In this document: in pieces, positions 11,801 to 51,028 of the stretch
Layout of the letters: every line of letters begins with the position of its first letter
Position numbering within the stretch: position 1 is the first letter of the stretch
Source: a virus
Reading direction: 5' to 3' (one strand)
IMG/VR virus record: IMGVR_UViG_3300013232_000048
Length of the DNA: 53,878 nucleotides
Position numbers and translations under genes: made by a program
Notes under the pieces: generated by a model
What the model was told of the DNA's origin: nothing
The model's database searches: none
What the model saw: the letters and a program-made list of their open reading frames with translations, nothing else

Positions 11801-14800
11801 ACACAGTCAACGAAACCTATTTGATGTTTTACAACATGTCTTTGCCTGACAATAAATCAGGTCCTGCCGCCAAACTTACACATAAGTATGTAGAACCTAT
11901 TACTAGTTGGACTACGATTGACTTGACGTTGAAATGGGTAACAGACCACATAGCATCAATCAAAGGAGGAAACTATAGTGTTCATTATTATAACGTAGTG
12001 GGTCCAGGACAAGAAGCCAAGACGATTCGTTTGAAGAAGAAAGATGAAGCTGTCCTTTTGGAATTGGGATACAAATGGGTACCATCGTGGGTGCAAGGTA
12101 AACCAAGTGCTTATGTCAATATTATTGGAGGCAAACGCATTGAGTTTTACAACAAAAATCTGGAGCAGTATAGTGGAAACTCTAGTATTGGTGTGCGTTT
12201 GAAAAATTATGAGGGTACAAAAACACTAAATGAATGGATTGAGATTGAAAATGCATTGTTATCGTTATCGTTAAGTGAAGGAAAAAATAAAGCATCTAAA
12301 CAGAGTATATTGACTTATGCAGACGCCAACCCGATTATAAATAATCATCTTCCAACGGTTCTTACTGCGGATGCCAATCTGTATGATCTGATAACATTTA
12401 AGGAGGATGAAAAAAGCGGACAGAAAGAAATGGATCAGAGTACGGGTGAAATATGGGTATCGTATGAAGGAAAGTTGAGGTTTGCCATTGGAAAACTAAA
12501 TGTTAATGATTGCCTGGAACCATCATGGTATATTCGTCAAGTTACTGGGGTAGATAAAATTAAGTTGGGTGAAGAGATTTATACTTTTTACACCGCCAAC
12601 AATGCAATACAGTATATCAATAAATATAGCTTACAGTTTTTAACCGGCGTTCCAATAACGCAGAGCTTGTTACTAAATAAAAAACCAAAAGGAATTGCCG
12701 GCAAAGACCTTTTACCACTTCATTTTGCCGTACTAGGCATAGCCGCAGGGTTTAGTCAAGTGGGGAATGAACAGGAAGGTGTGGTTTATACACATGAAAA
12801 TGGAGAATTTTCATTTACTTGGACTCCTACAAGTATTACTTGGTTTGCCGGTGAGGTCGGCATTAAAGAAGTTACTCCTCTTGCTCCCGCAACTACAACC
12901 GAATTTATTGCGAGCGCACTGGAAAATTGTGGCCCGGAGATGAATGTTGCTGAATTGGACAAAGTATTTTGTTCGGCGGCGCAATCGAGAAAAGAAAAGA
13001 TATTTGATCGTATGCTTAAAATAGCAAGGAAGCATAACGGTGCCAATATGGAAGGAACTCGGTTACATAAGGCGTTGACAGACAAATGGTTTATATGGAA
13101 TGATTTCGATCATGTGTATATGAACGAGAGACTATCTCAAGTTGTGGTAGTAACTCTGTCTAAAAATGTTGCTTACAATGAATATCATCTGTACTGGATA
13201 AAGGTAGATGGTAGTATTGCTCATGCCACACCGGGGGAAACATTGTTGATGGCGTTTATAGGTCCTAATGGTTCATTGAAACAATACCATCAGACTTTCA
13301 AGTCTGCAAAAAACCTTACTTTGACGCCAAGTGGTCATTTATACAAGGTGCATAGTAATGAAGCCAATGCCGACCGTATTAAAGTAAATGAACATGATAC
13401 TGAACTTCTTGAAAAGTGCGGATTTGTTTGGAATTCTTCCTTTTTTGCTTATACTAATTTAGATGAAGATTCATTTTCATTTACCAACACCGATAAAGCA
13501 CAATATTGGAATGCCGCAGAGTTTATGGGATATGGATTTGATGAAATCTCTCAAGCACTGACGTTTGCTATTCAAAAATACATAACTATGGCAGTAGGTA
13601 CTGGAGTGCATCCAACTCAAGCACATTCCAAAATGATTACAACTCCCATCACTGCTCCAAATAAAATGGCTTCCGAAGAAAGTTGGGGTCCGTTTAGTGA
13701 TGAGGCGTATGATAAAGATTATCCAGAGGATGAAGATGACGTGGATATGATTGACTTGAATGACCAAGATACTGGTGAATTGAAAAAACTTGGCTTTGAG
13801 CATGATCCAAAAAACCATAGTTACGTGAAGCACATTCAGAAGGGAGAAAAACCAAACATGAAGTATAAGTTTATCGAAGCAAAGAAGAAAGGCAGTGATA
13901 AGGGTAAAAAAGGCAAACATATTGCTAAGCAGTTTGATTTACCACTGGATGACCCAAAGCACGAGGAACCAGTTGGAGAACTAGATCAGTATGAAGTTAT
14001 TTATGCATTCAATACTGGCAATGCAACGTGGACTTTAACTGACGATCCAGGACCTGGTGGGGATGAAACACAGATGGAAGATGGGACAATCAAGGAAGTC
14101 TTAACCTTTGTTTGGAAGCGATGGTCCAAGATCAAATGGAGTGAGCTACCTTCGGATAATGTATCAAAGAAACTTAGTGAAATGGGATTTACATTCACAG
14201 GAGAAGTAGGTACTGCGGGATATACATATACTAAAAAGATAGGAGAATTTACAAACAAGGTTCAGATATATCCTCCAGATAAGTTTATTTACGTTGTATA
14301 TCAAACCGCTGGCGGATCAACAGCCGAACAAGTTTTCAAATATGAAGATACGATTGACGGAGGCATAAAGTATTTGCAGACGCATGTTCATGCTCCTCCA
14401 CCAAAGAAGAACCCATTACCAAAGAAGTCTAAGCATATTACGACCGTGGAAGATGCGATTCTTAATGGTGGGGGGAGATATATGGATGCTCCATTAGAAT
14501 GGAAACAATATGCTCCGTATGCTCCAGTTAAATCTCCAAAATCTACGACGGTGTATCCAGCACAAATACATAATGAAATATTAAACCTTGGATTTGTTTG
14601 GAGTGACAATCTTGGGATTTATACAAAAAATTACGCCGATGTCAATAAATGGGAAGCAGTAAAATATGAAGATGAATTGGCGTTTTATTTTTATCCAGCT
14701 ACAAGTTGGGATATGTCACGACGGTATTTTGTCTCTAAAAACTCCACTGCGGTTCTTAACAAAATACACATTATTGATAGTTGGAAAAGCGAAAAATCTA

Positions 14801-15498
14801 AAATTTGGGGTGGAGGAACTGGTGAAGTTCCATACAGTGGATTTGATTATGTTAACTTTTACCACAAGGAGCAGGGGCTTCCTACTAATATGAGTATTCA
14901 ACTTGAACCCAAGGACGAAAAGGTTATGGAAGATATGGGATTTAACTTGAACCATTTGCCTGCAACATCCAAATCATACAAATATGCTTATGTCAAAGAT
15001 GCCGAGCGAATGTTCTTTTTTGCTGGTGGTGGGGTGGCCCCTGGAGCGGCGTATTGGACAGACAATACAGGAGTTCAACAATACTTTCCAACAGTAAAGC
15101 AAGCAATGCAGTTTTTGTGGGATAAATATGCTCCAAAGAAAAAGGTGACTGGTGAGATGCCGTTTAGTGATTATCCATATCATAACCTATGGAAGTTACA
15201 AAACATCAACCAACACGTTGCCATTAAGTTAGTGGACGATGACTACGAGGTAATGAAGAGTATGGGATTTAGAGAAAAGTTTAACAAGGGTCTTGGACCC
15301 TATTATCAGAATGGAATTGAAGATATAACATTTTATGCTGATGGAACGGCGAAGTATTGGGAAAACAACACTTCGGGCAACCCTCCTACAAAGTTTCCTT
15401 CGGTAAAAGCTGCAATGACAAAACTCTGGAGAAAACACGCTCCTTACATTGAAGAAACCATTGGTTACGAAGACCTAACTGATCTTATGATGGCATAG
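5836..15498 (+). CDS. giant 3220-aa repeat protein of unknown function
   Basis: Single uninterrupted 9663-nt ORF. It contains many divergent repeats of about 90-110 aa with the pattern GF(K/T)Y...YxDG.s.Y...tF.el..fL...YG, an acidic DEDEDEDE stretch and a KKGSDKGKKGK stretch. Confidence 0.85.
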   Translation: MAISLKEQLNQAQQITEVIYRAPIFGYNYYQHGNHSKGREQGRRMFYDFYAMELLWSKLGGGAGSKAEQNRVNQAKAKVAAGTATDDDYFYANLDPKYSGISAWHGTSAVAGAVILPHKLQTTVDDLYEQVTRAVSKELLDYVRFAVIQEFQYLISYSDGWSKFRQEIVSHYNSSSTITKQQFDAIVNKRIPEMRPYPSVVKRLLKYSKYFSSMHTIDDKDPFDVTRNLSGKPPVGPSEPEDPFIEPQGHEEDEPISMPGGEEPPPEGEEIPGREFGTQGDVVGNIPPGWPDDKDEDEDEDEKNKLTEQLLTEEEINPKKIKKVMAAMKKADITLDDIEKSYNYIPWGGGYGGPKWGAGALALLKLMEARKTMDVEGLNSIIDHIYDLQHNTGALLNKGPMYVEDEDLNRRYKIRHIARFLPHVSLVVKGIITICLKYLENDPAQAKLEMEKEKIVSSPTKDMTPEQQAFLKEKGFNFVNAGRCRAAINFKNKMGASVSGVYYQITAHADGRFSVNDNLMADIQVFNTFEEVQKFIPHFEADIKKGGVSSSSSSHAAPIKSEKEIYKQSHSRIKLPADKETDLLYQAKMGWRNSQKYKAYFPGSKRFELYAFSDGSFLATYSDSMEFKVFTDWINAFNYCKTEGAKALDYPDKDGALAAIGKGGSGNVVSPSEPVGAPVVPSKPVVTVDYYLEPLEVQSIKQLLSAASFTAIHVIGQDSTGMYNIGTLQNGHLFSVGHKLNTAYGKTYRVAHNLPGGVPETWTFSDWKQTYEFLQKNLQGLIKNIPISSTKSFLSATTPLAYTPTGNDLPAYSPSKASYAMHTGIQTPPKHTIRLTKEDEALVTAAGFIPKMLSGDVWYIHKFAKDTIKFYPNNTAKLLFTSQSSTVPGVNFNNIEKMLVWVQKNYTSTTTKSPLETGVPTAAPVAGGGTQLGSMMEKILISAGFAWNDATKTYEDANKPGAPNTIVIKPNKASVLMVKPNTAYNDEVHHFANLLDLMTYIKDVYPTDKKKSKPAVAPTVAVSPDVAKMTKSDLHEKLFSLGYKTTLKVVSNGVEYLHPSNGSVIILYYDGKSLYISPAATIKYAFNTFQELSDYLDKLYPGGGSMDFSKLPKEPTGGGITNEEYEQLKSLAGKHGYISSWMGSQGQAGVSDHVSIYKKPVDESPPAKYPLVYTVWKYGEYYQINDVNGNPLSLTDGFEKLKQSIEKLLDPKEALITLLELLKQGGFQYVKGPSKNGGYEYANTKNESFQYFPHNKTSTLYDAAVSNMVFFDNLQQAVDYLTKKYGNLTPSPVAKDVEVPFAKVGKITVFPSWATDKLRDLMEKGKFYYKGPTSGGVGYRYDNEAEDWITLYKDGSSEVYDKKHGNSIAYNNLPDLMEYMQEKYGSSPAPEEDVPTKEVPSTIDLLGDLPAALAKGGFKYASPVDSSDDSYSSGSVYDGNDGTRIVFYDSGKSNIYYSNGSSISLNTPNELVQWLIDKYGQPYQSHTEELYARLKQYGYKDYPYSNPQFVTWIHPTSTDRIQVQDDGHVIIDPAVTAEEKGAVSIYLDTPQQLLEYLDKKHGPAKLKLKQIHEELPKLLKEIGFVLEVLPHISLNQVYKHPQGSTFTVHEKNKAYEIHVGSIKVTYQSITDAIYFLNQYFHTGGNNAEASMVTGNTGNTALDAAINNAGFKYHGTAEDTSAMIFYSNDGVQLKIFDDKSSIHNWPQTAMGGKQKVTTFNDFESLTEFLGQLHGRKEPKPEDFPFPQLLAQWEDLSGKLKDYGFTYKTTSKSGNVSYKVYSHVNLVNLTVYADGKSAYMGKASVGGLTFNTFKELESFLDTHYGKKEDYAISYYDNLGPSQTAYSIRLKEEDEKQLKSLGWVWVPSAESSTVSAYVHKDTAKRLVFYNMLLAVNKDKPTAALLDKSFYNLMDFKGKFIPEVIAYFIEHPEKISDANPPGGKYSVHYYDEVGPDQSHYSIRLRKEDEEILEDHGFIWRPAHNSGDPNWYQNTVNETYLMFYNMSLPDNKSGPAAKLTHKYVEPITSWTTIDLTLKWVTDHIASIKGGNYSVHYYNVVGPGQEAKTIRLKKKDEAVLLELGYKWVPSWVQGKPSAYVNIIGGKRIEFYNKNLEQYSGNSSIGVRLKNYEGTKTLNEWIEIENALLSLSLSEGKNKASKQSILTYADANPIINNHLPTVLTADANLYDLITFKEDEKSGQKEMDQSTGEIWVSYEGKLRFAIGKLNVNDCLEPSWYIRQVTGVDKIKLGEEIYTFYTANNAIQYINKYSLQFLTGVPITQSLLLNKKPKGIAGKDLLPLHFAVLGIAAGFSQVGNEQEGVVYTHENGEFSFTWTPTSITWFAGEVGIKEVTPLAPATTTEFIASALENCGPEMNVAELDKVFCSAAQSRKEKIFDRMLKIARKHNGANMEGTRLHKALTDKWFIWNDFDHVYMNERLSQVVVVTLSKNVAYNEYHLYWIKVDGSIAHATPGETLLMAFIGPNGSLKQYHQTFKSAKNLTLTPSGHLYKVHSNEANADRIKVNEHDTELLEKCGFVWNSSFFAYTNLDEDSFSFTNTDKAQYWNAAEFMGYGFDEISQALTFAIQKYITMAVGTGVHPTQAHSKMITTPITAPNKMASEESWGPFSDEAYDKDYPEDEDDVDMIDLNDQDTGELKKLGFEHDPKNHSYVKHIQKGEKPNMKYKFIEAKKKGSDKGKKGKHIAKQFDLPLDDPKHEEPVGELDQYEVIYAFNTGNATWTLTDDPGPGGDETQMEDGTIKEVLTFVWKRWSKIKWSELPSDNVSKKLSEMGFTFTGEVGTAGYTYTKKIGEFTNKVQIYPPDKFIYVVYQTAGGSTAEQVFKYEDTIDGGIKYLQTHVHAPPPKKNPLPKKSKHITTVEDAILNGGGRYMDAPLEWKQYAPYAPVKSPKSTTVYPAQIHNEILNLGFVWSDNLGIYTKNYADVNKWEAVKYEDELAFYFYPATSWDMSRRYFVSKNSTAVLNKIHIIDSWKSEKSKIWGGGTGEVPYSGFDYVNFYHKEQGLPTNMSIQLEPKDEKVMEDMGFNLNHLPATSKSYKYAYVKDAERMFFFAGGGVAPGAAYWTDNTGVQQYFPTVKQAMQFLWDKYAPKKKVTGEMPFSDYPYHNLWKLQNINQHVAIKLVDDDYEVMKSMGFREKFNKGLGPYYQNGIEDITFYADGTAKYWENNTSGNPPTKFPSVKAAMTKLWRKHAPYIEETIGYEDLTDLMMA

Positions 15499-17107: not shown

Positions 17108-18202
17108 ATGATAGATTACACAAAAAGATCCCTGGAGGGACTATGGGTTGGAGATTGCATTGGAAATCTTGGTCAACTTTACTTCGTTCACGATATTCTT
17201 AAAGCCCTTGAAGGCGGATTAGCCAAGTTCGGCGGGCAACTGGATAAGTTTCAAAAAGGATTCGTTTATTCCGATGATACGGAAGAAGCCATCGTGCTAT
17301 ACAATCACTTGATGAAGTCTGGAGGTCGAACTCCATTCATTGATCAAGATATGTTGGCCTTAGAGTTTGCTGCTCGTTATATGGAGCGTGACCCCGATGG
17401 AGAAATCTATGGGTATGGTCTAAACACCCGCAAAGTCCTCCGTGACATTTATGAAGGAGTGCCGTGGCGAGAAGCCAATAAGATTATCAAAAAAAGTGAA
17501 GGTATGCCTTCCCATATTGATAGTTTGGTAAATAGCTTATCCCAAGGTAAGGGTTTCAAAGATGCAATGGGCGATGTTAATACTGCTCTACAAAAACAAC
17601 GAACTGACCAGATGAATAAAGTCAAAGAAGGTTCCTGTGGCAATGGTTCGGCAATGAGAGTTGCACCGCTGGGAGCATTTCTTGGTGGTATGGTTGATCT
17701 TCAACCTGATAGAATGATTGCCGAAGCAGCACTTCAAGCGCAAGTTACACATTGTCATCCCGAAGGTATTGCTGGGTCTATTGCTATTACTACGGCAGCA
17801 TTAGTTGTTGCGAGTACGCATCAATCTGCCGAACCATTTATGGCTAGTAAAGGGTTATTACAAAAAATCATTCAGTATGTTCCAGAGAGTGAAGTTAGAA
17901 ACGGAATCAAAAAAGCAATGGATCTTCCGGTTGAAACTCCCATCGGAAAGGCAATAGAAGTCCTTGGCAATGGAACTCACGTTACATGTCAGGATACAGT
18001 GCCTCTTTGTTGTTGGTTGATTTCCAAACACTTACAGAAATATTCTCCCGAAGAAACATATGAGAAAGCAATTATTGAAACTTCAATGGCGTTCGGAGAT
18101 GTAGATACTAACTGCGCTATCGTGGGTGGTGTTGTAGGCATTGTCAGTCCTCCACCTGACAAATGGAAGAAGTTTTGCAATCCAATGGAAGGAGTAATAT
18201 GA
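17108..18202 (+). CDS. ADP-ribosylglycohydrolase family protein (ARH/DraG-like)
   Basis: The N-terminal motif SLEGLWVGDCIGN, the central GSCGNGSAMRVAPLG and the C-terminal GDVDTNCAIVGGVVG match the conserved ARH family motifs (metal-binding Asp/Thr). Confidence 0.8.
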   Translation: MIDYTKRSLEGLWVGDCIGNLGQLYFVHDILKALEGGLAKFGGQLDKFQKGFVYSDDTEEAIVLYNHLMKSGGRTPFIDQDMLALEFAARYMERDPDGEIYGYGLNTRKVLRDIYEGVPWREANKIIKKSEGMPSHIDSLVNSLSQGKGFKDAMGDVNTALQKQRTDQMNKVKEGSCGNGSAMRVAPLGAFLGGMVDLQPDRMIAEAALQAQVTHCHPEGIAGSIAITTAALVVASTHQSAEPFMASKGLLQKIIQYVPESEVRNGIKKAMDLPVETPIGKAIEVLGNGTHVTCQDTVPLCCWLISKHLQKYSPEETYEKAIIETSMAFGDVDTNCAIVGGVVGIVSPPPDKWKKFCNPMEGVI

Positions 18203-20801: not shown

Positions 20802-21425
20802 ATGGGTTATTTTAATATGAACTACACTTGTCATAGCGGAGGATGTCCCGGCGCAGATATGGCGTGGGAGCGATTGGGTAAAAGATATGGCGTCAAAACC
20901 ATCGCTTACTCATTTCACAACCATGTTCACGAGGGGGAGAACCCAAAGATTTTGACCGTGGACGAACTAGCAGAGGGATGGACACACGTTAAGATGGCAG
21001 ACAGGACGTTGAAGAAGAACGTGGAGAGTCTTGATTCGCCGTATATGAGAAACCTCCTTTGTCGGAACTGGTTTCAGGTCAAAAACTCCGATGTGGTGAT
21101 CGCCATAGGTAAACTTATAGACCAACATACGGTTGGCGGAGGTACTGGTTGGGCAGTCCAAATGGCTATTGACGCTGACAAACCAGTGTTTCTATTCCTT
21201 CAAGACGCTATGGGAGGCGGTTGGTTTAGGTATATGCCCATCGTGGGGTTTGAATGGAATCGTGGTGAGATACCAAGACTGACAGAGAATTTTGCGGGTA
21301 TTGGTACTCGGGCATTGAACCAGTACGGTGAAGCAGAAATAGACAGAGTATATCGTCTAACTTGTATTGACGATTACAATGAAAAATTGAAAGGTTCGGG
21401 ATTTAGAAAGATGTATCCACAATGA
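20802..21425 (+). CDS. SLOG-superfamily (DprA/Smf/LOG-like) Rossmann-fold nucleotide-binding protein
   Basis: HSGGCPGADMAWE resembles the SGGA(R/K)GID motif. VVIAIGKLIDQHTVGGGTGWAVQMAIDADKPVFLF resembles the second DprA/LOG motif (GGGxG ... vfavp). Confidence 0.55.
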   Translation: MGYFNMNYTCHSGGCPGADMAWERLGKRYGVKTIAYSFHNHVHEGENPKILTVDELAEGWTHVKMADRTLKKNVESLDSPYMRNLLCRNWFQVKNSDVVIAIGKLIDQHTVGGGTGWAVQMAIDADKPVFLFLQDAMGGGWFRYMPIVGFEWNRGEIPRLTENFAGIGTRALNQYGEAEIDRVYRLTCIDDYNEKLKGSGFRKMYPQ

Positions 21426-22156
21426 AAGCATTCGTAAAAGTTAGAAAAGGAAACTTCCCCGACGTAAATTATTTTATGGCGTGGAAAGGATTTGATGAAA
21501 TCGGTTATGAAGTCATCAAGTTTGAAGAAGACCAAGAAAGTACCATTGATGTCACCGAGGATACTCCCGTGTTTGCGGGCGTGGGTTCCTGTCGCAAAAT
21601 CATCAAGCGAGTGTGGGGATGGGACTATACAGGTATCAATCCTTACCCCGACGAATTGATGCCATATATGCATCGTAAAGTGGAGCGTAAGAAATGGATA
21701 GATGCTCGGCAAGAAGCTTTGGAAGGACATAAGTTCATCAAACCTGTAATTCAAAAACAGTTTACGGGTGTGGTATTAAGTACGCTTTTAGACACCATCC
21801 GCACAGGCAAGATAGATGAAAACCATGAGGTATATGTAGTCGAACCTGTTGAGTTTATCGCAGAATATCGAGTATATGTCCATGAACATGAAATCGTTGG
21901 CGTAAAACATTACTTTGGAGATTGGTATAGTGCTCCGGCCAAAAGAGTTGTTGATGATATGATTGAGGCATATAAACCGTCAGCACCAATAGCATATGGG
22001 TTAGATGTTGGTATTATCAAAGACAATCAATATCATTTAGCTCCGGTAGAAATCAATGACGGTATTTGTCTTGGAAACTATGGGCTGGATCAGATACATT
22101 ATGCCGAAATGATTGCGGCAAGATGGCAAGAGCTTACAACCAATGGAAAAGTATAA
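21422..22156 (+). CDS. ATP-grasp-like enzyme
   Basis: 244 aa. HKFIKPVIQKQFTGVV followed by alternating hydrophobic strands and EINDGIC/LGNYGL resembles ATP-grasp ligases. No exact motif is certain. Confidence 0.4.
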   Translation: MKAFVKVRKGNFPDVNYFMAWKGFDEIGYEVIKFEEDQESTIDVTEDTPVFAGVGSCRKIIKRVWGWDYTGINPYPDELMPYMHRKVERKKWIDARQEALEGHKFIKPVIQKQFTGVVLSTLLDTIRTGKIDENHEVYVVEPVEFIAEYRVYVHEHEIVGVKHYFGDWYSAPAKRVVDDMIEAYKPSAPIAYGLDVGIIKDNQYHLAPVEINDGICLGNYGLDQIHYAEMIAARWQELTTNGKV

Positions 22157-25501: not shown

Positions 25502-26242
25502 ATGAGAATAAATATGGAAGGACAACGATTTGGGCGTTTGTTAGTTGAAAAATTCAAAGGACAATCAAAAGATAGAAAGGCATTGTGGGAATGTTTGTGT
25601 GATTGTGGTAAGACTACAATCGTAAGAGGAAAACATTTACGGCGTGGCCAAATTGTAAGTTGTGGATGTTATCGTCGTGAAAAAGTGACGGAAGCACTTT
25701 TCAAAAACTTGACGGGAAAGCAATTTGGAAGATTAGTTGCTACGAAAATAGATAAAAATGTTCGTGGATGTTATTTTTGGGAATGCCTTTGTGATTGCGG
25801 TAAAAAAGTAATAGTTGCTGGCAATAAACTTACTTTTGGGCATACCCGAAGCTGTGGATGTCTTGCAAGAGAGATGGCATCTAAACATTTTAAGGCATTG
25901 TGTAAAATCCAAAAGGGAAAAAATCATCCACGATGGAATCCAAATATAACTAATGAAGAAAGACGAGAACGAATAGAACGAAAACGACAAGAATTTCGAG
26001 AATTAAAATGGAGAAATATGGTTTATGTTAGAGATAAATATACCTGTCAAAAATGTGGAGATTGTCGTGGAGGAAATCTTAATGCTCATCATATTTTCTC
26101 ATGGAAAGATTATCGAAAGTTGCGGTATGTAGAATCTAATGGGATAACTTTTTGTGAGGAATGTCATAAAAAGTTTCACGAAATAAATGGTTATGGAAAT
26201 AACACAAGAAAACAACTTACAGATTACATGCAAATTGTGTAA
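25502..26242 (+). CDS. HNH homing endonuclease with duplicated Cys4 zinc modules
   Basis: Two repeats, CLCDCGK...SCGC, followed by YTCQKCGDC...NAHHIFSW...N...FCEECHKKFH, the HNH motif. Confidence 0.75.
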   Translation: MRINMEGQRFGRLLVEKFKGQSKDRKALWECLCDCGKTTIVRGKHLRRGQIVSCGCYRREKVTEALFKNLTGKQFGRLVATKIDKNVRGCYFWECLCDCGKKVIVAGNKLTFGHTRSCGCLAREMASKHFKALCKIQKGKNHPRWNPNITNEERRERIERKRQEFRELKWRNMVYVRDKYTCQKCGDCRGGNLNAHHIFSWKDYRKLRYVESNGITFCEECHKKFHEINGYGNNTRKQLTDYMQIV

Positions 26243-28668: not shown

Positions 28669-29226
28669 TTGTTTTTTGATACTCCTAACACTATTTATAG
28701 GTATAGAGTGATAGGATACTGTATGAAATGTGAAATTTGTAAGAATGAGTTAACAAAACGTTATCAAAAACGTTTTTGCAGCCAACTGTGTGCAAGTAAA
28801 GCGAGAATAGTTGTAAGATATTGTAAACAATGCAATGTTCAATTGCAACCTAACACAAAGCAAAGAACATATTGTAGCAAAGTGTGTCAACAAGCTTTTC
28901 AGAGGAAAAGTATTCATAAACAAATTGAAAGCGGAGGTTATGAGTGCGTATATTCTGGAAATAAATTTCTTCGCAACTATCTCATAGAAATTCGAGGAGA
29001 AAAATGCGAAGAGTGTGGATTGTCAGAATGGATTGGAAATAAAATTCCATTGACGGTTCATCATATTGATGGTAATGCGGAAAATAATGTACCATCCAAT
29101 ATGCAATTGATGTGTTGGAATTGTCATGCATTGACTGATAATTATGGGAGAAAAAATAAAATTTCTGCCCGTGATTATAGATATAAAAATGCCCCTATAG
29201 CTCATGGTGAGCCGGTGGTCTTATAA
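28669..29226 (+). CDS. HNH homing endonuclease with N-terminal zinc-ribbon repeats
   Basis: CEICKNE...FCSQLCASKA...YCKQC...YCSKVCQQAF followed by CEECG...HHIDGN...N...LMCWNCH. Its 3' end overlaps the 5' part of the next tRNA. Confidence 0.8.
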   Translation: MFFDTPNTIYRYRVIGYCMKCEICKNELTKRYQKRFCSQLCASKARIVVRYCKQCNVQLQPNTKQRTYCSKVCQQAFQRKSIHKQIESGGYECVYSGNKFLRNYLIEIRGEKCEECGLSEWIGNKIPLTVHHIDGNAENNVPSNMQLMCWNCHALTDNYGRKNKISARDYRYKNAPIAHGEPVVL

Positions 29227-29707: not shown

Positions 29708-29781
29708 GCCGGGTTAGTATAAAAGTATTACAGTAGTTTTGTAAACTTCAAAAGTCGGGGCAGTACCGACACTCGGCTCCA
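29708..29781 (+). tRNA. tRNA-Thr(UGU)-like with non-canonical T-loop GGCAGTA
   Basis: Acceptor GCCGGGT/ACTCGGC. The anticodon arm GTAGT-TTTGTAA-ACTTC has one mismatch. T-arm GTCGG-GGCAGTA-CCGAC. It is a paralog of the tRNA at 29847, with a compensatory swap in the first pair of the anticodon stem. Confidence 0.5.
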
Positions 29782-29846
29782 ATTTGATACGAAATTAGAA
29801 CAAACAGTAATTGTAAAATGAAATTTGAACTATCAGTAGTATCTAT

Positions 29847-29920
29847 GCCAGATTGATGTAAAAGTAGCCTGCAAGTTTCGTAAACTTGATGCGTCGGGGC
29901 AGTACCGATATCTGGCTCCA
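29847..29920 (+). tRNA. tRNA-Thr(CGU)-like with non-canonical T-loop GGCAGTA
   Basis: Acceptor GCCAGAT/ATCTGGC. Anticodon arm CAAGT-TTCGTAA-ACTTG. T-arm GTCGG-GGCAGTA-CCGAT. Confidence 0.55.
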
Positions 29921-30124
29921 ATTTGCTACTTAAAACACCGATAATCGGTGCGATAAATAGCATTGTTTTAACATGTCGGAGTAGGCTCTAAGCGGAGTCA
30001 AAAGTTGTAACTGAATATGTTGTCCATCCACCCCTGTTCAGTGAGAAATGACGAAGTGATACGACACCCTTGAGAATGGACTTGGGGAACAGAACTGATA
30101 TCAAGTACTGACTGTTATGTTGAT

Positions 30125-30954: not shown

Positions 30955-31401
30955 ATGTATAGTGCAACAAGCATGTTGGCAAAAGCTAAAGACAATAATA
31001 TTCTTCCTGTAAGAAGAAACAATTTCTATTATAGGGAGGTTTATCTTAAAAGTGATCACTGGAAACTTTTGAGAGAAGAAAAACTTAATAGAAATCCTAC
31101 TTGTCAACAATGTGGGTCTTCGGTTTGTTTAGATGTTCATCACAAAGACTATCGGGGACTTTATGATGTTAGGTTAAATGATTTACAAACGTTATGTCGA
31201 AAATGTCATAATAAAAAGCACAAGCGAAAGGACCATAAAAAACCCAAGAGAAACTTGATTGAGCGTATAAAATGGCACGCCGAAGGATATGGAAATCCAG
31301 TCAAATTAACTGCACGCAACAAAGAAAGACAAGAAGTGTTCGACAAGATGGTTAATTGGAGATGTAGAGACATAAACACTTACATTTCTATTCATTATTA
31401 A
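30955..31401 (+). CDS. HNH homing endonuclease
   Basis: CQQCGSSVCLDVHHKDYRG...ND..TLCRKCHNKKHK. Confidence 0.75.
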   Translation: MYSATSMLAKAKDNNILPVRRNNFYYREVYLKSDHWKLLREEKLNRNPTCQQCGSSVCLDVHHKDYRGLYDVRLNDLQTLCRKCHNKKHKRKDHKKPKRNLIERIKWHAEGYGNPVKLTARNKERQEVFDKMVNWRCRDINTYISIHY

Positions 31402-31800: not shown

Positions 31801-31911
31801 ATTTCTAGGATACTCATTTGTCGGGTACCCTAGCGGAATGAGATAGACACCCTAGTAGGGCACGAACGGGGGGGAACAATCCGTGAAATCCTCAGAAAGC
31901 TATTTCAAAAT

Positions 31912-31988
31912 GCGTCGAAAGCTACAGTGGACCGGCACCCGGCTCTTACCCGGATATGGTTGGGTTTCAACTACCCATCGGCGCACCA
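31912..31988 (+). tRNA. tRNA-Lys(CUU)
   Basis: Acceptor GCGTCGA/TCGGCGC. Anticodon arm CCCGG-CTCTTAC-CCGGA with a 27-43 mismatch. T-arm TGGGT-TTCAACT-ACCCA. Confidence 0.5.
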
Positions 31989-31995
31989 ATTTCTG

Positions 31996-32764: not shown

Positions 32765-32821
32765 AAGATACAGACAGCAACCAAACCAAATTCATCTGTT
32801 AAATGAAAAAAACTGTATCTT
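32765..32821 (+). repeat. IR element family member a (AAGATACAG ... CTGTATCTT)
   Basis: 9-bp perfect inverted repeat flanking ACAGCAACCAAACCAAA... It starts 4 nt after a tRNA 3' end and is followed by GTTTTT. Confidence 0.6.
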
Positions 32822-33768: not shown

Positions 33769-33836
33769 CTTTGAGATATTGATGAAGGTAAAGGCCAATA
33801 TGAAAAAGGATTGGACGAGAATAATCAGTATCTTAC

Positions 33837-33911
33837 GGCCCATTCGTCTAACAGCTAGGACAATAGATTCTCAATCTATAAACACCGGGGCAGCACCGGT
33901 ATGGGCTACCA
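33837..33911 (+). tRNA. tRNA-Glu(CUC)-like; T-loop GGCAGCA
   Basis: Acceptor GGCCCAT/ATGGGCT. Anticodon arm ATAGA-TTCTCAA-TCTAT. T-arm ACCGG-GGCAGCA-CCGGT. Confidence 0.5.
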
Positions 33912-34053: not shown

Positions 34054-34635
34054 ATGACAAAAAATTATTATACCATAAAAATTCGACGGATACGGATGAA
34101 AAGGGAGGCGATTCGTCTTAAGGGAGGGAAATGTGCTGATTGTGGATGGAATGGAAACATAGCAGCATTTCAATTTCATCATCGAACCCCATCCGAAAAA
34201 AAATTTACTATATCATCAAACCCAAAAGTTAGTTGGGAAAAATATTGGGAGGAAATAGAAAAATGTGACTTGTTATGTGCCAATTGCCATATGATACGTC
34301 ATTCAGACAATGCTGACCCTCAATTCTTGAAAGATGTTGAAAATTATAAGGGACGGGAGTTGGTAGTATCCGTTATTCCGTGGAAAAATCAAACCCACAT
34401 TCCTCATAGTTATGATCATAATTGTCAGTATTGCAATAAACCATTTACATCATCCAGACAAGTTCAGAAATATTGTTGTCCGAATTGTCAAAGTAAAGGT
34501 CGACGAAAATGTATTAGGCCATCTAGGGAAGAACTAGAAAAAATGATTATTGAAATGCCAATGACTCATATTGGGAAAAAGTATGGTGTGTCCAGTGTTG
34601 CAGTAAAAAAATGGTGTAAAAATTATGAAATTTAA
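34054..34635 (+). CDS. HNH homing endonuclease with C-terminal zinc ribbon
   Basis: GGKCADCGW...FQFHHRTPSEKKF...LLCANCHMIRH followed by CQYCNKPF...CCPNCQ. Confidence 0.8.
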   Translation: MTKNYYTIKIRRIRMKREAIRLKGGKCADCGWNGNIAAFQFHHRTPSEKKFTISSNPKVSWEKYWEEIEKCDLLCANCHMIRHSDNADPQFLKDVENYKGRELVVSVIPWKNQTHIPHSYDHNCQYCNKPFTSSRQVQKYCCPNCQSKGRRKCIRPSREELEKMIIEMPMTHIGKKYGVSSVAVKKWCKNYEI

Positions 34636-37269: not shown

Positions 37270-37344
37270 CAGGTGCGTGTTGTAATAGTAGCATCTTTCG
37301 CTGTGAACGAAACGGCATGGGAGCGTAACCCATCCACCTGACCA
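37270..37344 (+). tRNA. tRNA with anticodon GUG but A73 and no G-1 (His-like anticodon with a non-His acceptor); T-loop AGCGTAA
   Basis: Acceptor CAGGTGC/CCACCTG with one mismatch. Anticodon arm TTTCG-CTGTGAA-CGAAA. T-arm ATGGG-AGCGTAA-CCCAT. Confidence 0.5.
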
Positions 37345-37602
37345 ATTTCTCCAAACATTACCACCCATAAACAGATAGTCTATAGCTCCCTCTGTATTGG
37401 TTAATTGGTGGACTCCCCTGAAAGTCGCTCTTTCTTCTTGGAGTGGTGCGGAGAATTCACTTTCTCAGTGACGGAGCCAACGTCCAGTGAAGCGATAAAG
37501 TTGATCACAATTCATGAACTTGTTTCTAGCTGTCGTAACGATGCCTAAATTGGCGCAAGCCATCGTGGGTAGTAGTTTGGGCATGACTGAGATTTACAAA
37601 AT

Positions 37603-38413: not shown

Positions 38414-38489
38414 GGGAATGTAGTGTATAGTAACACGCTTACTAACAGTTCGAGAAGCGGAGTATAACTTACCTCCGTCATTTCCACCA
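38414..38489 (+). tRNA. tRNA-like gene, anticodon unresolved
   Basis: Acceptor GGGAATG/CATTTCC-A-CCA with D-stem GTGT/ACAC, but the anticodon and T arms do not fold canonically. Confidence 0.3.
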
Positions 38490-38493
38490 TTTT

Positions 38494-38568
38494 TGGCGAA
38501 TGCTGAAGTACAAGGCATTTGGAGAAGTCCCTAAACAAGGATGAGGGGTTCGAATCCCCAGTTCGCCA
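38494..38568 (+). tRNA. tRNA-like gene, anticodon unresolved; no encoded CCA
   Basis: Acceptor TGGCGAA/TTCGCCA is perfect. T-arm AGGGG-TTCGAAT-CCCCA. The possible anticodon loop is 8 nt. Confidence 0.35.
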
Positions 38569-38578
38569 AATTCAATTT

Positions 38579-38712
38579 AGATGCGTACAGCTAGAAAACC
38601 TCTTATGTAAACCTGCGTGTCGGTGTGTGCAAATCCACCCCTTCGGACTCGACCCGAAGGTAGCTCAGTTAGTAGAGCAGCGGGAGCCGCAAGGCAAGAA
38701 AAAAACGCATCT
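38579..38712 (+). repeat. IR element family member b (AGATGCGT ... ACGCATCT) with an internal tRNA-half-like insert
   Basis: The arms show covariation relative to member a (GCGT/ACGC versus ACAG/CTGT). The insert contains CCTTCGG-ACTCGAC-CCGAAGG followed by the D-arm-like TAGCTCAGTTAGTAGAGC. Confidence 0.55.
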
Positions 38713-38723
38713 AGCTCTTTAAT

Positions 38724-38798
38724 GGTCCTGTGGTGCAAGAGAAGCACAGAAGTCTTTCAAGCTTCAGATCGTGAGTGCAATACTCCGCAGGACTACCA
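38724..38798 (+). tRNA. tRNA-Glu(UUC); T-loop GTGCAAT-like
   Basis: Acceptor GGTCCTG/CAGGACT. Anticodon arm GAAGT-CTTTCAA-GCTTC. The T-arm is poorly paired (GAGTGCAATACTC). Confidence 0.55.
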
Positions 38799-39036
38799 AT
38801 TTGGAAAAGTTAGGAGGTTGGCTTAGAGGCAGCAATCCTTAAAAGAGTGATCGAGTGCAAATGTTTATTCTTTTTCGCCCTGTGGTGACATGGGGATAGA
38901 CGCACACCTACCCGCAAGTATCGCATCGTATCTCGTCAGAGGTACAGGCAGAGCAGCAATCAATTCTACATTCGAGAGATAGAGAAAGCGGCGGTCTGAG
39001 GTCTTTGGCGTAGCAGCACACTATCTTTTCCAATTT

Positions 39037-39106
39037 GCCGAGATAGTTTAATAGCAAAACCACTGGTGACAGTGAATGATGGTTCATTTCCAATCTCTCG
39101 GCTCCA
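39037..39106 (+). tRNA. short (70-nt) tRNA-like gene, probably defective
   Basis: Acceptor GCCGAGA/TCTCGGC-T-CCA is perfect, with D-stem GTTT/AAAC. The putative anticodon hairpin has only a 4-nt loop. Confidence 0.3.
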
Positions 39107-39110
39107 ATTT

Positions 39111-39215
39111 AGATACAGACAGCAAGAAAACCTCTTAATCCAAACCAAAGGTGTGGGTTCGATTCCCATGTATAGTGTAATGGCAGCACACAGGTCAAAA
39201 GAAAAAACTGTATCT
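39111..39215 (+). repeat. IR element family member c (AGATACAG ... CTGTATCT) with a T-arm/acceptor-like insert
   Basis: Same arms as member a. The about 45-nt insert GGTGTGGGTTCGATTCCCATGTATAGTGTAATGGCAGCACACAGG looks like a T-arm followed by an acceptor 5' strand and D-arm, which is a permuted order. Confidence 0.5.
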
Positions 39216-39220
39216 AGTTC

Positions 39221-39295
39221 GCATCCATAAGTCAATTGGCAGACTGCAAGCCTTTTAAGCTTGCGATCTCGGATCGTCCCCGAGTGGATGCACCA
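39221..39295 (+). tRNA. tRNA-Lys(UUU); T-loop ATCGTCC
   Basis: Acceptor GCATCCA/TGGATGC. D-stem AGTC/GACT. Anticodon arm CAAGC-CTTTTAA-GCTTG. T-arm CTCGG-ATCGTCC-CCGAG. Confidence 0.65.
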
Positions 39296-39299
39296 ATTT

Positions 39300-39407
39300 A
39301 AGATGCCCGTTATCTACAGCAACTCCCAAAAGGAAAAGATCAATGCATATGAGCAATGACCCAGCTTGGTTCAAACCCGAGCACCCTCGCAAGAGGTTGG
39401 GCATCTT
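39300..39407 (+). repeat. IR element family member e (AAGATGCCC ... GGGCATCTT) with a T-arm-like insert
   Basis: The 9-bp arms covary relative to the other members. The interior has ACAGCAACTCCCAAAAGG and CTTGG-TTCAAAC-CCGAG. Confidence 0.5.
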
Positions 39408-39422
39408 GATTTTAGTTATTCT

Positions 39423-39508
39423 GCTACTGTGTCGTAATTGGTAAACGAGCGAGCCTGAGAAGCTCGTGCCTAAAAAGCGTGGGAGTTCGAGTCTCCCCAG
39501 TAGCACCA
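39423..39508 (+). tRNA. tRNA-Leu(GAG), class II
   Basis: Acceptor GCTACTG/CAGTAGC. Anticodon arm CGAGC-CTGAGAA-GCTCG. 13-nt variable arm. T-arm GGGAG-TTCGAGT-CTCCC. Confidence 0.65.
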
Positions 39509-39514
39509 GTTTTG

Positions 39515-39628
39515 GGCCAGTGGTGAAAATAGTTAAACACGCCGATGACCCCGGTTGAATGAGAACGATGAAGGGAGATTTCATTTAAGTCTTATTCCAA
39601 TGTAGGTGTAATTCCTGCCTGGCCCACC
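39515..39628 (+). tRNA. tRNA-like gene (114 nt) with about 40-nt extra internal sequence
   Basis: Acceptor GGGCCAG/CTGGCCC-A-CCA is perfect. D-arm GGTGAAAATAG. T-arm GTAGG-TGTAATT-CCTGC. The middle region is too long for a canonical anticodon and variable arm. Confidence 0.4.
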
Positions 39629-39689
39629 ACTTTAAGACCTCATATATCAGTCGCTAACCCAGTTAATGACCGATATACGAGACATTATT

Positions 39690-39767
39690 CAGGGTATAGT
39701 GTAGTTTGGCCAACACGTCAGTCTGGGGGACTGAAGACCGGCAGTTCGAATCTGCCTATCCTGACCA
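39690..39767 (+). tRNA. tRNA-Pro(GGG)
   Basis: Acceptor CAGGGTA/TATCCTG. D-stem GTGT/ACAC. Anticodon arm TCAGT-CTGGGGG-ACTGA. T-arm GGCAG-TTCGAAT-CTGCC. Confidence 0.65.
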
Positions 39768-39771
39768 ATTT

Positions 39772-39886
39772 GGGTGTATGGTGTAATGGATAACATACCA
39801 AAGTGAAACCGTAGCAGCCTAGGAACCAACCACGTTAGTAGCGATTCGCTTTTGCGAAGACACGGGTTCGATTCCCGTTACATCCA
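39772..39886 (+). tRNA. tRNA-like gene (115 nt) with about 40-nt extra internal sequence; no encoded CCA
   Basis: Acceptor GGGTGTA/TACATCC, D-stem GTGT/ATAC, T-arm ACGGG-TTCGATT-CCCGT. There are 62 nt between the D- and T-arms. Confidence 0.4.
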
Positions 39887-39893
39887 CCGATTT

Positions 39894-39957
39894 AAGATGC
39901 ATACAGCAACCAAAAATCTAATTCACACCTATTCTTGTGAAAAAGAAAATGCATCTT
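39894..39957 (+). repeat. IR element family member d (AAGATGCAT ... ATGCATCTT)
   Basis: The arms covary (GCAT/ATGC). The interior ACAGCAACCAAAAATC resembles member a. Confidence 0.55.
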
Positions 39958-39967
39958 GTTACTTTGT

Positions 39968-40044
39968 GGGGTCGAGGAGGAACAGCTAGACTCGCTTGCC
40001 TGTCACGCAAGAGACAGCCGGGGCAGCACCGGTCGATCCCGCCA
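39968..40044 (+). tRNA. tRNA-Asp(GUC), second copy; T-loop GGCAGCA
   Basis: Acceptor GGGGTCG/CGATCCC with G73. Anticodon arm CTTGC-CTGTCAC-GCAAG. T-arm GCCGG-GGCAGCA-CCGGT. Confidence 0.6.
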
Positions 40045-40068
40045 CTTTTGTTTGGGAATCAAAGATAG

Positions 40069-40140
40069 ACATTAGGATTGGTGTAATGGAAGCACAGCCT
40101 CACATATAGAGGAAGGATCGGTTCGATTCCGACTAATGGA
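40069..40140 (+). tRNA. tRNA-like gene, anticodon unresolved
   Basis: D-arm-like TGGTGTAATGGAAGCAC and T-arm TCGG-TTCGATT-CCGA. The acceptor pairing is imperfect. Confidence 0.3.
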
Positions 40141-40144
40141 ATTT

Positions 40145-40231
40145 GCGGGGACGCCTGCGCCCAGTGAAATCCTTTGAATGAAGATAGACGCAACTCCAAA
40201 AACGGAGGTTCAAATCCTCCCTGCCCCGCCA
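40145..40231 (+). tRNA. tRNA-like gene, anticodon unresolved
   Basis: The canonical T-arm GGAGG-TTCAAAT-CCTCC is followed by CTGCCCC-G-CCA. The 5' strand GCGGGGA pairs with a bulge. The next 80 nt contain the hairpin CCCCGCC-ATAT-GGGGCGG and a 5'-half-like segment TAGTGTCAGGGGTTAACAC. Confidence 0.3.
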
Positions 40232-40347
40232 TATGGGGCGGTAGTGTCAGGGGTTAACACGTTGGAACCGGAACATTGCTTGAAATCCTTCAATCCCATT
40301 CAATTTACCACTTGACAAATTGCTGAAGTAGTGTATGCTGTTAGTCT

Positions 40348-40548
40348 ATGAAAAAACTACGAGTTCGTAACCGGGATATCGGACGATGGGTAACAGTTAA
40401 ATGGGATGATATTGGGAGGCAAGACTGTTTACTGGTTGATGTGGATTTAGATAACAAGCGGGGAAAAGTATTCGTTCCTCACGAAAGAATGAGTACCATT
40501 GATTTGAGTCAAGTGACTGAAATCAGATCACGATTGAATGCGGCATAA
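40348..40548 (+). CDS. hypothetical small protein
   Basis: 66-aa ORF. Confidence 0.35.
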   Translation: MKKLRVRNRDIGRWVTVKWDDIGRQDCLLVDVDLDNKRGKVFVPHERMSTIDLSQVTEIRSRLNAA

Positions 40549-40852
40549 GATTTACAAAGACTCAATGGACGCTGAACCAAGGGCTATAATCCGACCCCCT
40601 CGGACTGGCCGCTTAAGTGAAATACTTGGCTCATGAGTTTAGCAAAGCATTTTGATTTCCCCACGGGTGATTGTTGTCTATACACTGTGGGGCTGACAAC
40701 AAAGCATGTGAATCATGTTGCTAATGGTGGATTGAAGAATTGGACACCGACAGGCTCCACTCCGTATCGGTTAACAGATGGGTAATATATTAACCCCGGC
40801 AAGGGGAAATTGCTTCCGCACACGCTCTCCCCATCCAGAGTAGTGCGGTATT

Positions 40853-40929
40853 CAGCGTGTAGGATAATTTGGTATTCCGCATGGTTCGGGTCCATGAGAT
40901 TGTGGGTTCAAATCCCACTACGCTGACCA
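40853..40929 (+). tRNA. tRNA-Pro(CGG)
   Basis: Acceptor CAGCGTG/TACGCTG. Anticodon arm CATGG-TTCGGGT-CCATG. T-arm GTGGG-TTCAAAT-CCCAC. Confidence 0.6.
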
Positions 40930-40936
40930 ATTTAAT

Positions 40937-41013
40937 GCTGATGTGATGCAATTGGAAGACATCAATCGCTTAGAACGATTGTTCCGCAGGTTCGAGTCCT
41001 GTCATCAGCACCA
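40937..41013 (+). tRNA. class I tRNA with anticodon UAG (a Leu-decoding anticodon on a short-variable-arm body)
   Basis: Acceptor GCTGATG/CATCAGC. Anticodon arm AATCG-CTTAGAA-CGATT. 5-nt variable loop. T-arm GCAGG-TTCGAGT-CCTGT. Confidence 0.55.
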
Positions 41014-41017
41014 TTTT

Positions 41018-41188
41018 ATGAAGAGAATACATCCGATCAAATACACGGATAAACAATGGAAACGAAAATATAGAGAATATGTTTGCTTTTGTCGGAAGTC
41101 TCCGTGGAAAATTGACGAAGAGCATATTGCTGAGTTTGACGAATTCAAGCGGAATACGTTAGACCCCAACATCAATACTGAATTATGA
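41018..41188 (+). CDS. hypothetical small protein (track ORF 40943-41188 trimmed because it overlaps the tRNA)
   Basis: MKRIHPIKYTDKQWKRKYREYVCFCRK.... Two further small ORFs of about 50 aa follow, at about 41185-41337 and 41305-41469. Confidence 0.3.
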   Translation: MKRIHPIKYTDKQWKRKYREYVCFCRKSPWKIDEEHIAEFDEFKRNTLDPNINTEL

Positions 41189-50548: not shown

Positions 50549-50557
50549 GTGCGTCCG

Positions 50558-51028
50558 ATGAATGATGTACATTATAGCAGTGCTTCCAACGAATGGGAAA
50601 CCCCGAAATCATTATTTGATGAATATGATGCCACTTATCACTTTCAGTTAGATGCCGCTGCTACCAAAGAAAACGCACTTTGCCAATCATTTTTCACCAT
50701 TGAAGACGATGCATTAACCAAGGACTGGTCTATTTATAGATCGGTATGGTTAAATCCTCCTTATGGTAGAATTATTGGAAAGTTTATGAAGAAGGCGTGG
50801 GAGGAAAGTGAGAAAGGATGCACGGTGGTTTGTCTTATACCCGCACGGACTGATACCAAGTATTTTCATGATTATTGCTTGAAATATGGAAAGGTAAAAT
50901 TTCTGCGGGGCAGGTTAAAGTTTATTAATCGTGCGCTTCCTTCTTATCGGAGTGATGGCAATTTCAAATCTTCACCGGCACCATTTCCAAGCTGTATTGT
51001 AGTATTTAACGGCAAATCAGAAAGTTAA
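50558..51028 (+). CDS. phage Dam-like DNA N6-adenine methyltransferase
   Basis: The N-terminal EWETPKSLFDEYD...FQLDAAAT and the motif IV WLNPPYG match the phage N6-adenine methyltransferase family. The track start 50549 is GTG, and ATG 50558 is used here. Confidence 0.8.
   Translation: MNDVHYSSASNEWETPKSLFDEYDATYHFQLDAAATKENALCQSFFTIEDDALTKDWSIYRSVWLNPPYGRIIGKFMKKAWEESEKGCTVVCLIPARTDTKYFHDYCLKYGKVKFLRGRLKFINRALPSYRSDGNFKSSPAPFPSCIVVFNGKSES

Follow-up and report, generated by a model that had tools for sequence, protein, structure and literature searches.

YrlA RNAs, which are found in >250 bacteria and in 22 phages, including mycobacteriophages, contain a transfer RNA (tRNA)-like domain that has its ends on the anticodon side and comprises a variable region, a T arm, a closed acceptor-like stem-loop, and a D arm (PMC4201824). 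In M. smegmatis YrlA, the acceptor stem comprises 7 base pairs (bp), ribonuclease P (RNase P) cuts at the tRNA 5′ position, and CCA is added in vivo; an explicit warning accompanies the family, namely that tandem tRNAs mimic YrlA, and this context was excluded as a source of false positives (PMC4201824). Here we analyze a 72-nucleotide (nt) unit at positions 40195–40266 (+ strand) of the metagenomic phage contig IMGVR_UViG_3300013232_000048, which shares the YrlA topology and has a 7-bp acceptor stem, as in the M. smegmatis form. The whole 53,878-nt contig, which is part (~54 kb) of a far larger phage genome, is referred to below as the window. Three further systems resemble the unit: permuted tRNA genes (Cyanidioschyzon merolae, other algae, and Thermofilum pendens) and split tRNA genes (Nanoarchaeum), which share with it an upstream 3′ half, a short spacer, and a full cloverleaf; two-piece transfer-messenger RNA (tmRNA; permuted ssrA, in alpha-proteobacteria and cyanobacteria), which is likewise a permuted tRNA-like gene and whose transcript, cut at a point between 5′ G and CCA end, becomes two paired pieces; and dimeric tRNA precursors, in which, as in the unit, the T arm of one unit precedes the D arm of the next. 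We found no literature that describes permuted tRNAs of bacteriophages or, within phage tRNA arrays, spacer modules that resemble tRNAs. Our reading of the unit, tentative and just short of an even call, is that it is a stem-enclosed, circularly permuted tRNA mimic in an inter-tRNA spacer.

The unit presents all four cloverleaf helices in permuted order, with 21 of 21 base pairs standard. In particular, a 3′ half (40195–40231) is followed by a TAT spacer and then by a 5′ half (40235–40266) on the same strand, and the parts succeed one another as anticodon-stem 3′ strand, variable loop, T arm, acceptor 3′ strand, G73, CCA, UAU, acceptor 5′ strand, U8 A9, D arm, G26, and anticodon-stem 5′ strand (Table 1). 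Specifically, CTGCCCC (40221–40227) pairs with GGGGCGG (40235–40241) over 7 bp, including one G-U pair, around a 7-nt loop GCCAUAU, and this hairpin has exact tRNA geometry, because its 7-nt strand abuts the T stem; the fourth helix is formed by TTGGA, one base past the D arm, which pairs 5/5 with TCCAA, four bases upstream of the T arm. For the isolated 72 nt, the permuted cloverleaf is both the minimum-energy fold and the centroid fold (−25.9 kcal/mol, z −1.7). A preliminary description of the locus had proposed that a 3′ half precedes a 5′ half here, which our analysis confirms, the two halves matching only each other; the same description gave the letters of the hairpin correctly but placed them in a CCCCGCC/GGGGCGG register with a 4-nt loop, which is wrong, and left the fourth helix unmentioned.

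No tRNA is called in the native order by ARAGORN or Rfam, relaxed settings included; with the halves re-joined in silico, default ARAGORN calls a tRNA at every loop junction tried. Bare 7-bp pairing after a CCA occurs at chance level (23 found versus 17.6 expected), and we therefore scored the whole arrangement, in which the complete helix set gives significance. To this end, 26 canonical tRNAs of the window were parsed, and 18 were permuted in silico at the anticodon loop and aligned, yielding a covariance model with nested permuted structure (R1), trained solely on ordinary tRNAs of this phage and searched with filters off. The unit scores 62.6 bits (E ~1e-18; 21 pairs, all standard). The next matches in the window are ordinary tRNA junctions, which reach at most 36.8 bits and have mismatched acceptor and outer stems; the Tyr-Tyr junction, with the same anticodon on both sides, reaches just 14.9 bits. 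Among controls, the maximum is 34.8 bits in 75 kilobases (kb) of relatives, 35.8 bits in 89 kb of five further relatives (~96 tRNAs), and 29.3 bits in 677 kb of unrelated phage DNA, with no match in 40 kb of a distant huge phage, such that, the unit apart, R1 stays below 37 bits throughout ~930 kb of phage DNA. A second copy of either half is absent from the 54-kb contig, with 11–12 mismatches allowed, which rules out two tandem intron- or insert-interrupted copies of one tRNA with their outer halves farther off, and neither half has a convincing closest paralogue among the tRNAs of the window. Two features answer the tandem-tRNA warning: the outer halves are absent, and real junctions score 26 bits below the unit.

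The unit lies in a + strand tRNA array that starts at ~23 kb and contains 33 tRNAs by ARAGORN and 36 Rfam tRNA matches. Short spacers separate the tandem tRNAs as a rule, and in nearly all array tRNAs the CCA is encoded, with ATTT or NTTT after it. Six of the inter-tRNA spacers (S-type; S1–S6, at 32766–32820, 33774–33833, 38579–38712, 39111–39215, 39301–39406, and 39895–39956) are closed by a 9–10 bp helix, (N)AGAT-N4/N4′-ATCT(N), that starts directly after the CCA-NTTT of the upstream tRNA and stops a few bases short of the following tRNA. A perfect 9/9 partner is present at 6/6 AGAT sites that follow a tRNA trailer; unrelated AGAT sites have 6–8 pairs with wobbles. The central bases of the helix differ in every copy (ACAG, ATTG, GCGT, GCCC, GCAT) yet are complementary within each, and the two outer pairs, which were unselected by the scan, pair in 12/12 cells with three pair types. 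Because perfect covarying closing helices are present in 6/6 cases, these spacers are stem-closed structured units, and the closing helix may be a processing signal. A leader ACAGCAAC(T)CCAAAA is common to S1, S5, and S6, and the leader of the unit, GCAACTCCAAAAAC, is a version of it.

Spacer S3 encloses a second permuted cloverleaf, at 38612–38684, with an outer stem CCTGC/GCGGG, a T arm GGTG(T)G-TGCAAAT-CCACC, a UA, and a D arm GCTC-AGTTAGTA-GAGC; its closed hairpin, CCTTCGG-ACTCGAC-CCGAAGG, is a perfect 7 bp and has no CCA. The minimum-energy fold of the S3 spacer reproduces the complete structure, and no tRNA finder reports 38612–38684. The sister spacers S4 and S5 hold parts of such an arrangement (Table 1).

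The unit itself is enclosed by a different bracket (E-type), AAGATAGAC...TGAAATCCTT, with 7/8 basal pairing and few hand-read compensatory changes, versus the perfect helices of the S-type spacers. The sequence AGATAGAC occurs in the window at 31841, 32958, 40063, and 40182, with GAAATCC within 17–95 nt after 4/4 of these sites, and the bracket AAGATAGAC...TGAAATCC is complete at 4/4. The bracket interiors measure 16/17 nt (32958), 35/36 nt (31841), 94/95 nt (40063), and 91/92 nt (40182, the unit), the larger value in each case including the T of TGAAATCC. The element that starts at 40063 (E3) has in its interior (40071–40143) a D arm, an anticodon-like arm, and a T arm on a 6-bp acceptor stem CATTAG/CTAATG, no CCA, and a loop ACATATA, again with C33. 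Its flanks, AATCAAAG and CTTTGAAT, pair 7/8, with C-G where the element around the unit (E4) has G-C, and the flanks at 31841 pair TGAG/CTCA; these pair-type differences were read by eye from few sequences. A 10-nt direct repeat, TGAAATCCTT, is present at both ends of a 106-nt piece that holds the core. The tie to inverted-repeat elements with tRNA-like inserts that had been suggested for the locus is borne out: the unit sits in an inverted-repeat-bracketed spacer, and other such spacers have tRNA-like interiors. A search for the bracket as AAGATAGAC-N70-100-TGAAATCC gave at least 120 matches, all at chance level, and these loci were reused as background DNA; matches to AGATAGAC at two other loci (L001 and L002) were likewise set aside as chance, the match in L002 lying within coding sequence.

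The window originates from a huge phage and contains an 851-amino-acid (aa) major-vault-protein-like gene (41668–44223; Pfam MVP_shoulder; vault repeat domains). This gene is ~40% identical to counterparts in 462–735 kb uncultured phage genomes and 71–84% identical to counterparts on other phage contigs. Two of the related contigs, at 74–76% vault-protein identity (L152, 2348–2413; L153, 589–654), have in common a 66-nt element, placed alike in both behind a PKD-domain gene where the tRNA array begins, that comprises an outer stem TCCCG/CGGGG, a T arm, a short closed hairpin, and a D arm. The element is far more conserved than its flanks. In particular, 8 of its 11 differences make up four compensatory pairs, of which the T stem has three and the hairpin one, no pair is broken, and 36/36 cells pair, for 100% pairing versus 47–59% in slid registers. 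This covariation, between two sequences, is suggestive, though no proof, of a conserved structure, and in its sequence the element looks like a conserved small RNA. With a model built from the two copies (R2), the best non-self matches in 182 kb are the unit (22.7 bits, E 0.002) and S3 (20.2 bits); S3 and the 66-nt element further have in common an unusual UGCAA T loop and an AG-type D loop. The conserved core of the element has no match in viral contigs.

Searches for the unit outside the window gave no counterpart: megablast against phage records returned no match, and the exact halves and junction are absent from viral contigs. The arrays of relatives at 71–84% vault-protein identity are unalignable at the DNA level, no other contig carries the proteins of the window itself, the nearest relatives being at most 80% identical, and viral contigs hold no relative of a 556-aa anchor gene. 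A scan of 185,579 species genomes for the 24-nt stretch of T arm and acceptor strand gave 17 matches (L132–L148), all in archaeal tRNA-Val or tRNA-Pro (Asgard, DPANN, and Bathyarchaeota), which we judge to be convergence on a generic GC-rich acceptor, the 5′ halves being different, and uninformative as to ancestry or host. In three relatives (L005, 8195–8249; L151, 14706–14760; L153, 20026–20088), the CCA-AUU of tRNA-Gln(CTG) is followed by UGGUAAG, which forms 6/7 pairs with that tRNA's own acceptor 3′ strand and, in L153, is followed by a D-arm-like hairpin. Judged by sequence, these trailers look like partial head-to-tail duplications able to give permuted units.

Table 1. Features of the permuted unit, its surroundings, and related elements of the array (window coordinates).
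Feature	Position	Strand	Details
5′ strand of basal inverted repeat, GAATGAAG	40176–40183	+	7/8 pairs with CTTCAATC at 40288–40295
5′ bracket motif, AAGATAGAC	40181–40189	+	related to AAGAT-N4 arm of S-type spacers
Linker GCAAC	40190–40194	+	with the following 9 nt, leader GCAACTCCAAAAAC; common to other spacers
Outer stem, 5′ side, TCCAA (tRNA positions 39–43)	40195–40199	+	5/5 pairs with TTGGA, 40262–40266
Variable region, AAAC	40200–40203	+	4 nt; 4-nt variable loops usual in the phage's tRNAs
T arm, GGAGG-TTCAAAT-CCTCC	40204–40220	+	5/5 pairs; canonical T loop
Closed acceptor hairpin: CTGCCCC, G73, CCA, UAU, GGGGCGG	40221–40241	+	7/7 pairs
U8 A9, D arm GTGT-CAGGGGTTA-ACAC, G26	40242–40261	+	4/4 pairs; equivalents of G18 G19 and A21 present
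Outer stem, 3′ side, TTGGA (tRNA positions 27–31)	40262–40266	+	pairs with 40195–40199
3′ linker, ACCGGAACATTGCT	40267–40280	+	no tRNA-like feature; begins AC, hence no U33
3′ bracket motif TGAAATCCTT (40281–40290) and basal repeat 3′ strand CTTCAATC (40288–40295)	40281–40295	+	
Promoter-like TTGACA-16-TATGCT	40312–40339	+	10/12 of consensus; consensus match only
Neighboring element E3, same bracket motifs	40063–40174	+	normal-order tRNA-like unit and hairpin 40145–40163
Sister S3, closing helix TAGATGCGT/ACGCATCTA, 9/9	38578–38713	+	encloses permuted cloverleaf 38612–38684
Sister S4, paralogue of S3 (same leader and trailer)	39111–39215	+	T arm, 3 nt, D arm; acceptor hairpin missing; 35.1 bits with R1
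Sister S5, closing helix AAGATGCCC/GGGCATCTT	39301–39406	+	T arm CTTGG-TTCAAAC-CCGAG; hairpin CCTC-GCAA-GAGG (GNRA); no D arm
HNH homing-endonuclease genes, at least five, within array	25502–26242, 28669–29226, 30955–31401, 34054–34635, 37744–38325		
Genes flanking array: ADP-ribosylglycohydrolase, R2K-clade ATP-grasp, Dam methyltransferase	17108–18202, 21422–22156, 50549–51028		

The phage has a standard, one-piece tmRNA gene (5381–5785; Rfam, 102 bits), which ARAGORN missed, and tRNA-Pro genes starting with C1 (C1-G72), from which we infer that the host is bacterial. A 3220-aa open reading frame (ORF) without a Pfam match (5836–15498) directly follows the tmRNA gene. The vault-protein gene is kept across the phage clade, often adjoins tRNA arrays in phages, and has ~47% identical versions in many bacterial metagenome-assembled genomes. 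The array holds many tRNA fragments, including many orphan T arms, and its HNH homing-endonuclease genes are a likely driver of its rearrangement; CxxC repeats are present at 36466 and 50017. On the 3′ side of the unit, the promoter-like site is the probable start of the next transcription unit (ORF 40348–40548), as judged by its consensus match. A 45-aa ORF (MKIDATPKTEVQ...) that runs across the element (40178–40315), with its start within the AAGATAGAC motif, was judged spurious, having no ribosome-binding site.

Elsewhere in the array, tRNAs or tRNA-like units at 39968–40054, 33837–33908, 29735–29790, and 29874–29929 have a non-canonical T loop, GGCAGCA or GGCAGTA. The first of these is, by hand parse, a tRNA-Asp(GTC) with 7/7 acceptor pairs and G73-CCA that was missed by default ARAGORN and by Rfam. 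Further uncalled units terminate, as the tRNAs do, in N-CCA with ATTT or NTTT behind it (38414–38495, 31964–31992, 37320–37348, 39601–39633, 47608–47660, and 47922–47974), with 38414–38495 having 7/7 acceptor pairs and an oversized T loop. An Rfam tRNA at 39772–39886 (42 bits) has ~41 extra nt in the anticodon/variable region, an insert that is of insufficient length for a group I intron and part of which may be a long variable arm (TTCGC-TTTT-GCGAA), and its 3′ end is CCG rather than CCA. The number of tRNA-like genes in the array exceeds 37.

It is unlikely that the unit encodes a decoding tRNA. It shows the half order, complete cloverleaf, encoded CCA, and short inter-end spacer that reportedly are the gene-level hallmarks of permuted tRNA genes, and a true circularly permuted or split tRNA gene would yield a working tRNA from a transcript that is circularized or ligated across its anticodon loop and cut open in the acceptor region, as in C. 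merolae or T. pendens. Such genes, however, have a bulge-helix-bulge, an archaeal or eukaryotic endonuclease and ligase, and normal loops. A systematic search for a bulge-helix-bulge at the junction of leader and trailer found no arrangement with 4/4 pairs in the central helix and at least 3/4 in an outer helix; every candidate loop drawn from the flanks starts A32 C33, whereas U33 is present in 26/26 canonical array tRNAs; and normal genes cover each of the candidate anticodons, GCA, CCA, and CGG. We also rejected a group I permuted intron-exon route, for which there is no loop U for a 5′ splice site and no intron match in Rfam. The host is bacterial, no tRNA splicing endonuclease is known from bacteria, and no splicing endonuclease, RtcB, or RNA ligase is present among the ORFs of the window (~54 kb of a much larger genome). 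The sister unit at 38612–38684, without a CCA, fits a tRNA mimic rather than a tRNA gene. A permuted or split tRNA gene is accordingly very improbable, and the suggestion in the preliminary description that part of the tRNA set derives from split or rearranged genes finds no support in the same observations. Equally hard to credit is a Ro60-binding Y RNA of the YrlA family, even with its like topology and with YrlA RNAs known in phages. The unit differs from YrlA in having its CCA encoded in the loop, in its location in a spacer among tandem tRNAs, and in its bracket, and the T and D arms, near-invariant in YrlA, have different sequences here. The Ro60 motif GNCGAAN0-1G is absent from 38496–41113, and within 135 nt upstream only one-mismatch matches occur, in the neighboring unit; no ORF scanned by Pfam or PHROGs matches TROVE/Ro60, a gene that for YrlA would be expected on the same strand within ~4 kb; the 556-aa ORF, considered as a Ro60 candidate, has no such similarity and no PDB match; and the Rfam YrlA model has no match up to E 10 in 1151-nt and 191-nt searches. 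Two last readings of this kind, a permuted two-piece tmRNA gene and two ordinary adjacent tRNA genes or pseudogenes with a terminator hairpin, are refuted by the tests and retain next to no probability. The only Rfam matches at the junction are two permuted tmRNA families, with which the unit has in common the order T arm, CCA, loop, and 5′ strand, but these matches are weak (17.3 and 15.3 bits versus gathering thresholds of 70 and 47). ARAGORN at an 80% threshold proposes a tmRNA, but its tag is implausible and its 5′ domain is the 5′ end of the neighboring tRNA-Asp. Whereas tmRNA has the G3:U70 needed for alanine charging, a long P2, a tag frame, and no D stem, the unit has G3:C70, a full D arm, a 5-bp anticodon-like outer stem, and no credible tag, and a normal tmRNA gene is already present in the window. 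The terminator between two tRNA pseudogenes that the preliminary description had itself offered as an alternative fails because no T run follows the hairpin and neither flank is a tRNA or recognizable pseudogene by Rfam or ARAGORN; no + strand terminator was found at 40221–40241, the hairpin being followed by TAGTGTC. In dimeric tRNA precursors, moreover, the two tRNAs do not pair together, and the outer halves that such a precursor comprises are absent here. Taken jointly, the readings as a permuted tRNA gene, a Ro60-binding Y RNA, and a tmRNA or terminator are unlikely.

A more serious competitor, which we regard as plausible though rather less than an even prospect, is a non-functional relic: a tRNA gene duplicated head to tail with a 3-nt spacer, of which the outer halves were overwritten or decayed and the inner halves are young. 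Short spacers between tandem tRNAs are normal in this recombination-prone array, and its tRNA debris, many orphan T arms, and HNH endonuclease genes, at least six in number, favor accidental origins. A series of further observations weighs, with this debris, against a functional mimic. The upstream unit starts GGGGACG, identical to GGGGCGG at 5/7 positions, right after an ATTT spacer; an ACCA-CTT end closes a stretch of exactly 76 nt that starts at 40235 and includes a T-loop-like TTCAATC; and the partial self-complementary duplications at tRNA-Gln(CTG) of relatives offer a precedent for a relic. Position 14 of the unit is C, compared with A in 24/26 canonical array tRNAs, so the contact U8-A14 is lost, and A15 and C48 do not form a Levitt pair; both C14 and C33 resemble features of a pseudogene. 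The basal stem, only 7/8, shares 4 nt with the 3′ strand of E3, pairing of leader with trailer is no better in duplex energy than that of shuffles, and TCCAA sits in a leader motif common to spacers without tRNA-like parts. The interior may be dispensable, because S1, S2, and S6 keep the closing helix around an interior with nothing tRNA-like and parts are missing from S4 and S5, and S1, S2, S4, S5, and S6 look like stages of decay. Finally, no orthologue of the unit was found that could attest directly to selection. What tells against a relic is that uniform neutral decay would not wipe out the outer halves yet spare 21/21 inner pairs, that the place of the lost halves is taken by recurring bracket motifs and not by random sequence, and that S3 repeats the complete arrangement and other phages conserve a related one, compensatory changes included. 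A small DNA cassette that moves or duplicates, with tRNA-derived cargo, resembling a miniature inverted-repeat transposable element and with inverted repeats that act at the DNA level, would account for the inverted repeats at the ends, the TGAAATCCTT direct repeat around the 106-nt piece, and the several copies with differing interiors. It is nonetheless improbable: the S-type arms vary between copies while being perfectly complementary within each, which suggests that base pairing is what is kept, rather than a fixed end sequence read by a protein, all copies lie on one strand and exactly between tRNA genes, and no transposase was found. Perfect helices, recurrence in S3, a conserved covarying element in relatives, and enclosure in a selected spacer architecture incline us, to a degree slightly below evens, toward the stem-enclosed permuted tRNA mimic. 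The mimic and the relic are not exclusive in origin; head-to-tail duplication is likely to be the source in both.

The mimic, on this evidence, would have arisen most probably as the head-to-tail junction of two copies of one tRNA. It would be co-transcribed with the array, and the RNA would fold in vivo as an L-shaped tRNA mimic on a 5-bp stem that replaces the anticodon stem; such a mimic could not decode, because it has no anticodon loop. Cleavage by bacterial RNase P is determined by a stem of 7 bp that stacks on the T arm, by U at −1, and by RCCA. All of these are present in the unit, whose GCCA is encoded, and a cut by RNase P between U40234 and G40235 may therefore reasonably be expected by analogy. 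The cut would split the spacer into a two-piece tRNA-like RNA with a trimmable CCA end, comparable to M. smegmatis YrlA. Its cellular role might be to recruit or titrate tRNA-handling enzymes, or to punctuate the polycistronic transcript.

More broadly, and still more doubtfully, the arrays of huge phages may hold an undescribed class of Ro60-independent, stem-enclosed permuted tRNA mimics in tRNA spacers, of which 40195–40266 would be the most tRNA-like member. Were this so, the RNase P-opened two-piece RNA, with its CCA end, might even be aminoacylated, and it could titrate or recruit tRNA-handling enzymes or host defense factors that target the acceptor or elbow region. A phage tRNA array is commonly taken for a series of tRNA genes with junk in between; here, the spacers are structured, and several contain permuted tRNA-shaped domains that standard tRNA finders and Rfam do not report. 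Either way, the tRNA counts of such arrays omit non-canonical tRNAs and these modules, which matters to annotators. If the units are relics, they offer a clear natural snapshot of the "duplicate, then lose outer halves" route proposed for permuted RNA genes. If they are functional, YrlA-type mimicry would reach beyond Ro60 into huge phages, with a concrete RNase P substrate, and would bear on phage tRNA processing or on the evasion of tRNA-directed host defenses.

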